NCBI RefSeq assembly: GCF_047663525.1
Contig: NC_092617.1
Coordinates: forward strand, 5,639,550-5,703,549
Direction of reading: 5' to 3'
DNA: 64,000 nt
DNA from: Anas platyrhynchos
Taxonomy: Eukaryota
Part shown: positions 31,401 to 39,129 of the stretch, one piece after another
Position numbering within the stretch: position 1 is the first letter of the stretch
Layout: every line of letters begins with the position of its first letter
Position numbers and translations under genes: made by a program
Notes under the pieces: model-generated
Told to the model about the DNA's origin: nothing
Database searches by the model: none
Seen by the model: the letters and a program-made list of their open reading frames with translations, nothing else

Positions 31401-34400
31401 TAATTATGTTAATTAATGAGGAGGGAGGACGGGATTTTTGGGGTGAATTCTGGCGATTTTGGGGCTTTTATTTCCTGGATTTGGAGGCGGAACCAGGCTG
31501 GGGTGGGAGCTGAGGGGGTGAAATTTGGGGCTGGGAGTGATGTTAGGGGATGGGGGCGCCCCCAAAAACCTTAATTAGCAGTGTTAATTAATTAATGTGG
31601 ATGATGGGATTTTTGGGGTGAATTCGGGGGATTTTGGGGCTTTTATTTTCCGGATTTGGAGGAGGAGCCGCGCTGGGGTGGGAGCTGAGGGGGTGAAATT
31701 TGGGGCAGGAACTGAGGAAATGAGCGGTGTGAGGGGTTGGGGCACCCTTAATTACCTTAATTAGTGCTGTTAATTAATGGGATAGAGGGACGGGGATTTT
31801 TGGGGTGAATTCGGGGGATTTTGGGGCTTTTATTTTCTGGATTTGGAGGCGGAACCAGGCTGGGGTGGGAGCTGATGGGGTAAAATTTGGGGCTGGGAGT
31901 GGTGTTAGGGGATGGGGGCGCCCCTAATTACCTTAATTAGTGGTGTTAATTAATGGAATAGAGGGACGGGGATTTTTGGGGTGAATTCTGGCGATTTTGG
32001 GGCTTTTGTTTCCTGGATTTGGAGGTGGAACCAGGCTGGGGTGGGAGCTGATGGGGTGAAATTTGGGGCTGGGAGTGGTGTTAGGGATGGGGGCGCCCCT
32101 AATTACCTTAATTAGTGACGTTAATTAATGGGATAGAGGGACGGGGATTTTTGGGGTGAATTCCGGGGATTTTGGGGCTCACATTTTCCGGATTTGGAGG
32201 CGGAACCACAAGGGGATGGTGATGAGGGGGTGAAATTTGGGGCTGGGAGCGCCGTAAGGGGATGGGGTTGCCCCCAAAAACCTTAATTAGTAATGTTAAT
32301 TAACGAATGGGGCCGATGGGATTTTTGGGGTGAATTCGGGGGATTTTGGGGCTTTTATTTTCTGGATTTGGAGAAGAAACCACAAGGGGATGGTGATGAG
32401 GGGGTGAAATTTAGGGACTGGGAGCACCGTAAGGGGATGGGGGCGCCCCCAAAAACCTTAATTAGCGGTGTTAATTAATTAATGTGGATGATGGGATTTT
32501 TGGGGTGAATTCGGGGGATTTTGGGGCTCACATTTTCCGGATTTGGAGGCGGAACCAGGCTGGGGTGGGAGCTGAGGGGGTAAAATTTGGGGCTGGGAGT
32601 GATGTTAGGGGATGGGGGCACCCCTAATTACCTTAATTAGTAATGTTAATTAACGAATGGGGATAATGGGATTTTTGGGGTGAATTCGGGGGATTTTGGG
32701 GCTTTTATTTCCTGGATTTGGAGGCGGAACCAGGCTGGGGTGGGAGCTGATGGGGTGAAATTTGGGGCAGGAACTGAGGAAATGAGCAGTGTAAGGGGTT
32801 GGGGCGCCCATTATGACATTAATTAATGATGTTAATTAATGAGGAGGGAGGAGGGAATTTTTGGGGTAAATTCTGGCGATTTTGGGGCTTTTGTTTCCTG
32901 GATTTGGAGGCGGAACCAGGCTGGGGTGGGAGCTGATGAGCTGGGATTAGGGCTGGGAACGCTGCCAGGGATGGGGGCGCCCCTAATTAACTTCATTAAC
33001 AACCCTAATTAACGGGATAGAGGGACGGGGATTTTTGGGGTGAATTCCGGGGATTTTGGGGCTCACATTTTCCGGATTTGGAGGAGGAGCCGCGCTGGCC
33101 GCTCTTGGAGTTGAAGCCGCTCTTGCCGCGCCGCGAGGTGTTGCCGGAGACGCGCTGCCGCTTGGAGGGCACCACGGCCCGGGCGATGGGGGGCGGCGGG
33201 GGGACGCGGGCGGGGTAGCTGTACATCCTTTTGGGGTGAAAAACCGCGATTTTGGTTAAAAGGGGGAATTCTTAAAGCTAGGGGAAGGAGGGAATGGGAG
33301 GAGGAAGGGGTTTGGGGTGGAATTAGGGGGAAATGGGGAAAATGTTTTTTTTTTGGGGGGGAGAACAAGTGGGGAGGATGAAAAGAATGGTAGTTTTTGG
33401 GGGAAATTTAGCAAGAAATGGGAAAATTGATGAAAAATTGGGATTTTGGGGGAAAAAATAAGCAGGAATGAGCATAATAATGGGGGTTTAGGGGAAAAAA
33501 TAAGTAGGAAAGATGAAAAATAAAGGGATTTTAGGGGAGAAATTAAGGAGAAATCAAAAATAAAAAGGGATTTTTTTGGGGAAAATTCAGCCAGAAATGG
33601 GAAAAATGATAAAAATTGGGATTTTGGGGGACAATCTATGTGGAAATAATAAAAATAAGGGGGTTTTAGGGGAAAAAATAAGCAGGAATTATTAAAATAA
33701 TGGGGTTTTAGGGAATAATTAAGGAGAAATGGTCAAAAATGAAAAGGGATTTTTTTGGGGAAAGTTCAGCAAGAAATGGGAAAAATAAAAAATTGGGATT
33801 TTGGGGGAAAATCTAAGTGGAAATGAGCAAAATAAGGGGGTTTTAGGGGAAAATAAGCAGGAATGAGCGAAATAATGGGGTTTTAGGGGAAAAAGTAAGA
33901 AGGAAAGATGAAAAATAAAGGGATTTTAGGAAAGAAATTAAGGAGAAATTGACAAAAAAATGGGATTTTTTGGGGAAAATGTAGCAAGAAATGGGAAAAA
34001 TAAAAAATTGGGATTTTGGGGGAAAATGAGGAGAAATGAGCAAAATAAGGGGATTTTAGGGGAAAAATTAAGCAGGAATTATTAAAATAATGGGGTTTTA
34101 GGGAATAATTAAGGAGAAATGGTCAAAAATGAAAAGGGATTTTTTTGGGGAAAGTTCAGCAAGAAATGGGAAAAATGAGAAAAATTGGGATTTTGGGGGA
34201 AAATGAGGAGAAATGAGCAAAATAAGGGGATTTGGGGGGAAAATGAAGGCGGAATGCCCACACTAACGGGGCGATGGGGGGCGGCGGGGGGACGCGGGCA
34301 GGGTAGCTGTACATCCTTTTGGGGTGAAAAACCGCGATTTTGGTTAAAAGGGGGATTTTTTATAGCTAAGGGAAAAAGGGAATGGGAGGAGGAAGGGGTT

Positions 34401-39129: not shown

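Follow-up and report, generated by a model that had tools for sequence, protein, structure and literature searches.

How the edges of a gene's own exons, complete with their splice sites, come to be repeated within the introns beside them is the question raised by the HNRNPC locus of the duck Anas platyrhynchos, analysed here in a stretch of 64,000 nucleotides (nt) from contig NC_092617.1 of RefSeq assembly GCF_047663525.1 (positions 5,639,550 to 5,703,549, forward strand); the whole of this stretch is referred to below as the window, and coordinates are counted from its first base. An earlier reading of the same DNA (the original prediction) had listed partial intronic copies of three HNRNPC exons, and had proposed that satellite expansion was seeded at exon-intron junctions and that it scattered cryptic donors and acceptors through a gene whose product is itself a splicing regulator. 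The edges of four HNRNPC exons, together with their splice sites, have been copied into neighbouring introns, involving five exon-intron junctions, and we consider it very probable (roughly 85%) that the pattern represents exon stuttering, that is to say the exon-touching form of avian dot-chromosome sequence stuttering.

The gene itself lies on the minus strand, with a coding span of 25353-39129. Its coding exons were located by tblastn, using a human HNRNPC sequence as query, and the splice sites were then refined; the resulting model has seven coding exons, E1 (38889-39129), E2 (36535-36610), E3 (36334-36381), E4 (33067-33227), E5 (28043-28144), E6 (25531-25682) and E7 (25353-25436, including the stop codon), with GT-AG at all introns. 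The coding sequence (CDS) of 864 nt is in frame, and its 287-residue product matches RefSeq XP_068524924.1 (HNRNPC isoform X2 of Anas acuta) at every residue, so that the identification made in the original prediction stands. This product is 93-95% identical to bird HNRNPC and contains PF00076 (RRM), and the full-length colinear match together with the conserved exon structure and synteny mark the gene as the HNRNPC orthologue. RNA-seq contigs encoding the 287-residue product number 17 on record; eight duck RNA contigs (L002-L009) are colinear with the model, their coding exons being 98.7-100% identical to it, with six of the seven exons at 100%. A non-coding exon of the 5' untranslated region (5'UTR; 44298-44885, minus strand), which is defined by duck RNA contigs and separated from E1 by intron 0 (39134-44297, minus strand), is matched at 99.7-100% by four of these (L002-L004 and L009), which run straight on into E1.

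When each exon was searched by blastn against the window together with 200-nt flanks, off-diagonal copies were found that overlap exon sequence of E1, E2, E4 (at both ends) and E6, and alignments on the gene strand place the copy breakpoints sharply, inside the exons. The junctions copied are the E1 donor, the E2 acceptor, the E4 acceptor (twice), the E4 donor (19 times) and the E6 acceptor. For the E1 donor, the copy (38141-38174, minus strand) comprises 22 nt of exon (38153-38174) followed by GTGAGC and the intron sequence beyond, and it lies 736 base pairs (bp) downstream of the authentic donor, precisely as had been predicted; the match is perfect over 46 nt, including all of the 9-mer donor window (9/9), and scores 44.1 bits. 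This copy sits within the 21-bp CTCCCAGTCCC satellite of intron 1, and some 310 bp around it (37865-38174) match 38602-38910 at 79%. The E2 acceptor copy (37084-37180) has 48 nt of exon (37084-37131) and 49 nt of intron, giving 97 perfectly matching nt (acceptor window 23/23 over the 23-mer; 95.6 bits), and it belongs to a unit at 37080-37430 (minus strand) that aligns to 36559-36893 at 83%; the original prediction had placed it correctly, with an offset of 526 bp that should read 521 bp.

Both of the E4 acceptor copies originally described are present in intron 3, each at the gene-direction end of a higher-order unit of roughly 1 kb on the minus strand. The second such unit (34269-35177) ends with the E4 acceptor and 47 nt of E4 (34269-34315), of which 46 match (acceptor 23/23; offset 1088 bp; 85.7 bits), and its alignments extend over 251 nt at 91% and 953 nt at 81%. 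The third (35178-36199; 1059 nt at 82%) ends with the acceptor (21/23; offset 1960 bp) and just 10 nt of E4 (35178-35187). A further copy, of the E6 acceptor, was missing from the original list; together with upstream intron 5 sequence it occupies 26523-27400 (minus strand), with an exon part at 26523-26578 in which about 48-55 exon nt match at 96%, the CAG being kept and 15/23 positions of the acceptor window retained (offset 896 bp; 73.8 bits). With its flank it aligns at 75% over 916 nt, and it is the oldest of the copies. All of the copies that had been listed were recovered, either where they had been placed or a few bases away.

The E4 donor presents the most extensive case. According to Tandem Repeats Finder (TRF), intron 4 contains a satellite with a period of 175 bp and a dimer of 361 bp (the period had been given as 178 bp), and this array (29545-33098, minus strand) consists of 19 intronic monomers together with the authentic founder monomer. 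In each intronic monomer the first 17-32 nt are homologous to the E4 3' end and are followed by the donor position, so that there are 19 E4 donor copies at a spacing of about 175 bp between 29687 and 32893. Self-alignments of intron 4 stop at 33098 (or at 33086-33091), some 20-32 nt inside E4; the exon edge is thus a true part of the satellite monomer, and indeed of every monomer in the intron. GTGAGC is kept in four of the 19 copies, where the last exon-like base is at 32532, 32183, 31284 or 30748, while the remaining 15 have AAAAGC in its place; hence, of five positions that had been named, those near 31300 and 32170 are live donors and those near 30225, 30945 and 31665 are not. Apart from the authentic site, the 31-mer spanning the E4 donor junction has one exact intronic occurrence (31278-31308), where none would be expected, and three further copies carry 2 mismatches each and a live GT.

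The 20 intron-4 monomers keep a 174-187-bp register and are mosaic in make-up: the 5' part may be exon-like or diverged, the donor GT or AA, a 12-nt insertion present or absent and the middle block of either of two versions, every combination being represented, and the monomers closest to the authentic one are 2.5-3.2 kb distant from it. Taken together, this mosaic structure and the remoteness of the closest relatives point to unequal exchange or gene conversion. It might be supposed that the 15 AAAAGC copies reflect selection against live donors, but the case for this is weak, as they represent a single variant spread by amplification, and elsewhere in the monomer there are blocks whose variants are about as frequent.

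In introns 1, 3 and 5 the situation is rather different. There the exon-bearing unit is a higher-order duplicate of 0.5-1.1 kb with the junction copy at its end, and these units contain 21-bp or 41-bp minisatellites without exon sequence, implying that the junction copies are secondary and arose after expansion had begun. Most of the repeat mass of the introns is purely intronic sequence. The proposal that satellite expansion was seeded at exon-intron junctions therefore applies to intron 4 only, and is unsupported for introns 1, 3 and 5. Tandem-repeat analysis gives a 41/177-bp minisatellite free of exon sequence for intron 3 (33394-36206, minus strand), and the 41-bp family (AATAATGGGATTTTGGGGAAAA...) fills both this stretch and intron 5 (25796-27941), at 70-74% identity; within the 64 kb, 55 of 56 matches to its pattern fall inside introns 3 and 5, with 0.05 expected by chance. 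Intron 4, which lies between the two, has a satellite unrelated to this family, and intron 1 has a family of its own.

As a statistical check, the published screen for exon stuttering was repeated, using blastn-short with dust off to compare each exon with all introns and accepting matches of length at least 20 and at least 42.1 bits. It returned eight proximal matches of 44.1-95.6 bits, in introns 1, 3, 4 and 5, every one of which begins 0 nt from the exon border and is on the same strand; since the maximum over 20 replicates with shuffled introns was 24.3 bits, chance is excluded. The sole distal matches were to a 25-nt motif found in the 3'UTR and upstream of the E4 acceptor. This motif, AAAATCGCGGTTTTTCACCCCAAAA, stands upstream of the E4 acceptor (33229-33253) and of both its copies (34317-34341 and 35189-35213), and recurs at 96% right after the stop codon (about 25330-25354). 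Self-alignment of 25.0-39.3 kb gave 145 off-diagonal high-scoring segment pairs, all direct and none inverted. The alignments, the self-alignment and the shuffle control agree in showing extended duplicates of unique exon sequence, contiguous with splice site and intron flank, as had been claimed, and with direct copies reaching into the exons the similarities go well beyond low-complexity matches.

The surroundings of these copies are overwhelmingly repetitive. By TRF the tandem-repeat share is 83-86% in introns 1, 3, 4 and 5, with values of up to 89% for expanded introns, as against 0% for intron 2 (153 bp) and intron 6 (94 bp), and the window as a whole is 78-81% tandem repeat, with dominant periods of 10, 20/21, 41/42, 52, 82/83 and 103-105. 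G-quadruplex (G4) motifs across the whole window number 313 on the plus strand and 120 on the minus strand.

Hron et al. (Genome Biol Evol 2026, PMC12954441; preprint September 2025, bioRxiv 10.1101/2025.09.16.676548) have described sequence stuttering in the introns of chicken dot chromosomes, and apply the term exon stuttering where a lateral part of an exon and its splice site are tandemly copied into the adjacent intron. They report it for 115 genes and 236 introns, 3.4% of dot-chromosome introns being affected; in over 90% of cases the source lies no more than 1 nt away from the border of the exon, the exon parts are of 20-187 nt (median 36) and there are 1-44 copies. The phenomenon was verified with raw nanopore reads, including at PHF8, and is strongly length-polymorphic (PMC12954441). 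Duck HNRNPC matches this definition in the following respects: exon edge, splice site and intron sequence are repeated directly in the adjacent intron; the source is at the exon border, with the splice-site windows and intron flank co-duplicated; the introns concerned are more than 80% tandem repeat while the exons are intact; and the exon parts of 10-55 nt, with 1-19 copies per expansion, may be set against the chicken ranges just given.

The species analysed in that paper was chicken, not duck, and its one mention of HNRNPC is as a retained ohnologue. The text of the Fig. S5 gene list does not have HNRNPC, but does have SUPT16H, which is the neighbour of duck HNRNPC, along with CHD8, OSGEP, PCK2, PRMT5 and RBM23, all on chicken dot chromosome 34 (chr34) (PMC12954441). 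The duck case differs from the chicken study in that a single small gene has copies at five junctions, with four of its six coding introns involved, and in that one minisatellite family occupies two non-adjacent introns. There is also a close resemblance to the minisatellites described for bird dot chromosomes, Pekin duck included, whose introns are more than 70% minisatellite, with units in multiples of 10-11 bp and an enrichment in G4 (bioRxiv 10.1101/2025.10.17.683159); the repeat share of the window, its periods and its 313 plus-strand G4 motifs are all of this kind. However, that study covers composition and non-B DNA, with no exon-derived units. A further parallel is provided by the intragenic tandem duplications and pseudoexons of human disease, in which an exonic breakpoint leaves an extra splice site in an intron and its use leads to a premature stop, but in disease such events are rare, arise singly and are selected against, whereas the duck HNRNPC duplications are recurrent, fixed in the reference, amplified as satellite and apparently tolerated.

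As to mechanism, the published suggestions for dot chromosomes are stress on replication where the DNA is G4-rich, and recombination or gene conversion in meiosis (PMC12954441). At duck HNRNPC, each junction copy may well have started as an illegitimate tandem duplication whose breakpoints fell one inside the exon and one inside the intron beside it. As one complete exon then always stays next to its proper flank, the coding sequence is unchanged, while a truncated exon edge, splice site included, would be stranded in the intron. The 175-bp unit of intron 4 would then have become a satellite monomer, with unequal exchange or gene conversion amplifying and reshuffling it, while in introns 1, 3 and 5 the units duplicated would have been of 0.5-1.1 kb, with minisatellites already inside them.

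Several points tell against identifying the pattern as exon stuttering. The copy structure is that of one assembly rather than of long reads or population data, and the placement of the duck locus on a dot chromosome is a putative one, made by synteny and repeat content only. The 41-bp family common to introns 3 and 5 does not fit the intron-isolated repeat blocks of the published descriptions. Any microhomology or other duplication signature at the novel junctions is unreadable, the homology fading into low-complexity repeats before the end of the unit. Finally, the retrievable RNA contigs all encode the exact canonical protein, so that rare isoforms using the copied splice sites would escape.

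Comparison with the orthologous locus elsewhere, put forward in the original prediction as the way to time the duplications, took in the genomic HNRNPC loci of emu, ostrich, alligator, chickadee and Nicobar pigeon, in each of which the seven coding exons are again present. In emu the CDS span is 1,965 bp, with introns 1-6 of 483/209/98/111/106/88 bp and 2% tandem repeat (locus plus 3-kb flanks), and in ostrich 2,051 bp, with introns of 486/229/121/109/155/81 bp and 0% tandem repeat; in alligator E1 to E7 occupy about 2.9 kb, the annotated range being 5,436 bp, with introns of 575/539/229/361/224/94 bp and 1% tandem repeat. The figures for chickadee are 4,176 bp, 1084/821/116/812/332/147 bp and 62% (locus plus 3-kb flanks), for Nicobar pigeon 10,021 bp, 1671/131/1311/3751/708/1579 bp and 65% (likewise with 3-kb flanks), and for duck 13,777 bp, 2278/153/3106/4922/2360/94 bp and 79%. 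Introns 1, 3, 4 and 5 have thus grown 5- to 45-fold in duck, while introns 2 and 6 are no larger than in the outgroups; in pigeon and chickadee other introns are expanded, with repeat families unrelated to those of duck. As none of these five loci contains any exon-stuttering match, the duck copies are lineage-specific.

Compared in this way, the sequences show an ancestral HNRNPC coding span that was compact and free of repeats. With alligator, emu and ostrich compact and chickadee, pigeon and duck expanded, instability at this locus is derived within Neognathae and lineage-specific, and the expansion is, to judge from the unrelated repeats, independent in each of the neognath lineages compared (duck, chickadee and pigeon). 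The emu (L020) and ostrich (L023) loci are GC-rich (62-66%) and yet nearly free of tandem repeats, from which it follows that high GC alone is insufficient for stuttering at HNRNPC. Comparison of the copied stretches with goose and chicken mRNAs yields no dating information, as most of the variable sites are specific to goose or to chicken. Across duck, emu, chickadee and pigeon, intron sequence aligns only over the first 48-69 nt of intron 2, including a conserved C2-type donor extension: in duck the first 39 nt of this intron (36496-36534) keep the reading frame open for 13 residues up to a second GT, which is the bird counterpart of the human C1/C2 alternative donor.

Among the other explanations that need to be weighed, one would make the intronic splice-site copies (decoys) functional, diverting HNRNPC pre-mRNA into stop-containing isoforms as a form of autoregulation, perhaps with U5-U6 tracts that might bind hnRNP C. 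Many hnRNP genes do autoregulate through unproductive splicing. Three of the decoys are identical to the authentic sites over the full 9-mer or 23-mer windows and two are near-identical, the E2 and E1 copies have their 97 and 46 perfect nt, and use of any decoy site would bring in a premature stop 5-118 codons on. The sites that are still canonical comprise one E1-type donor, four of the 19 E4-type donors and four acceptors. However, the eight duck RNA contigs (of 17 on record) all join the authentic sites directly and use no decoy; 15 of the 19 E4 donor copies have lost GT; and the U-tracts, being equal at authentic and decoy sites, cannot discriminate between them. Between the decoy acceptors and whatever exon-like element comes next there is no donor-like site (at least 7/9 of consensus), with a single exception 26 nt into the E2 copy, which the real E2 likewise contains and leaves unused. 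Nor were recursive splice sites (AG|GTRAGT) found, the decoy acceptors reading cag|ACA, aag|GAT and cag|AGC. The copies are, in addition, absent from pigeon, chickadee, emu, ostrich and alligator, and structures of this type have been reported from 115 chicken genes of every sort, unrelated to one another (PMC12954441); in view of these last two considerations, a special link to HNRNPC as a splicing regulator is likewise unsupported. Functional decoys are accordingly very unlikely.

It is, rather, probable that the decoys go unused, given the lack of donor-like sites after the decoy acceptors and the premature stops with likely nonsense-mediated decay (NMD); exon definition would fail at the decoys and NMD would remove any leak. 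The claim that cryptic donors and acceptors are scattered through the introns was in this respect overstated, in that only a few sites remain canonical, the decoy acceptors lack a following donor-like site and the eight RNA contigs keep to the authentic sites. A variant in which part of the pre-mRNA is nevertheless spliced at the perfect decoys, giving stop-containing isoforms degraded by NMD and hence an accidental, lineage-specific brake, of which the dead GT → AA copies, preponderant in intron 4, would be the trace left by selection paring back its cost, seems very improbable. Intron 3 contains just 34 GT and 21 AG in its 3.1 kb, and the further idea that G-poor intron RNA had been selected against cryptic GT/AG was rejected, as the same DNA strand is G-rich across the convergent gene TTC5, where the intron RNA is G-rich.

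An assembly artefact, in which repeat-rich and G4-rich DNA had been mis-joined so that reads from exon edges were put in introns, has in its favour the well-known difficulty of sequencing and assembling dot-chromosome DNA (bioRxiv 10.1101/2025.10.17.683159), and also that other assemblies have no record of an open reading frame spanning the decoy junction of E4. However, a mis-join should yield identical sequence and irregular spacing, whereas the copies have diverged unequally (100%, 98% and 96%; 75-91% with flanks), their breakpoints are sharp and differ between copies, and the 19 intron-4 monomers are of several mosaic types in a regular 175/186-bp register; moreover, the same architecture was verified by raw nanopore reads in chicken PHF8 (PMC12954441). 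This makes an artefact highly improbable. That the fragments, which do share the orientation of the gene, are decayed whole-exon duplications or inserted pieces of processed mRNA, and did not arise by tandem duplication across a junction, is scarcely credible, as all copies are unspliced, the exon edge running on for 50-900 nt into the intron sequence that belongs to it, homology ends abruptly in the exon with unrelated sequence beyond, each copy is found only in the intron adjoining its source edge, and neither the exon-to-exon joins of a retrocopy nor the graded whole-exon similarity of a decayed duplicate is seen.

Of the neighbouring genes, the 3' exons of SUPT16H (Pfam PH_SPT16 and SPT16_C) lie upstream of HNRNPC at 52460-63466 on the minus strand, and TTC5 (TTC5_OB) lies downstream at 14347-23857 on the plus strand; the order SUPT16H-HNRNPC-TTC5 fits the chicken chr34 region holding SUPT16H, CHD8 and OSGEP. 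The plus strand of 12000-43000 is G-rich, with a GC skew of +0.2 to +0.8, and as this spans the convergent genes TTC5 (plus) and HNRNPC (minus) the asymmetry is independent of the direction of transcription. An intron of TTC5 contains an array of 165 bp x 11.3 at 91% identity (14492-16353), starting 24 nt after the donor, which amounts to intron-only stuttering; exon stuttering was rejected for TTC5, the single match in the screen having fallen in intron sequence over-extended by tblastn. The SUPT16H 3' exons are separated by satellites of 20 to 182 bp, and a 36-bp CAT-rich array (61724-63281) is found shortly downstream of SUPT16H exon sequence at about 63.3-63.47 kb.

The HNRNPC 5'UTR exon stands at the edge of a T/C-rich satellite of 82-172 bp (44298-47500), and since a goose RNA contig (L016 1-1735) has 1.7 kb of homologous satellite upstream of the CDS, part of the array is evidently transcribed. 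Just 3' of duck HNRNPC there are AAGATGGCGGC minisatellites on the gene strand (24104-25092), the motif being one that we take to be a YY1-like consensus; similar minisatellites occur in chickadee both 3' of HNRNPC and in intron 4 (L021 5877-6301 and 7568-8491), and in pigeon in intron 4 (L022 6685-8400). With up to 1 mismatch allowed, the duck window has 23 matches to the motif, of which 16 fall at 23-26 kb, as against 35 for chickadee and 79 for pigeon; the emu, ostrich and alligator loci have none. Cores of the TTTTGGGG type are common to many otherwise unrelated satellites of the window.

The kind of event seen here has already been published, and duck HNRNPC opens no new category. What it adds is exon stuttering outside chicken, in an anseriform, and at five junctions of one 14-kb gene. 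The locus also constitutes a natural test case for splice-site choice, with acceptor decoys identical over about 100 nt and a donor decoy over 46 nt that are unused in the mRNAs retrieved, while the mosaic monomers of intron 4 provide a substrate for asking whether it is unequal exchange or gene conversion that drives the growth of such arrays.

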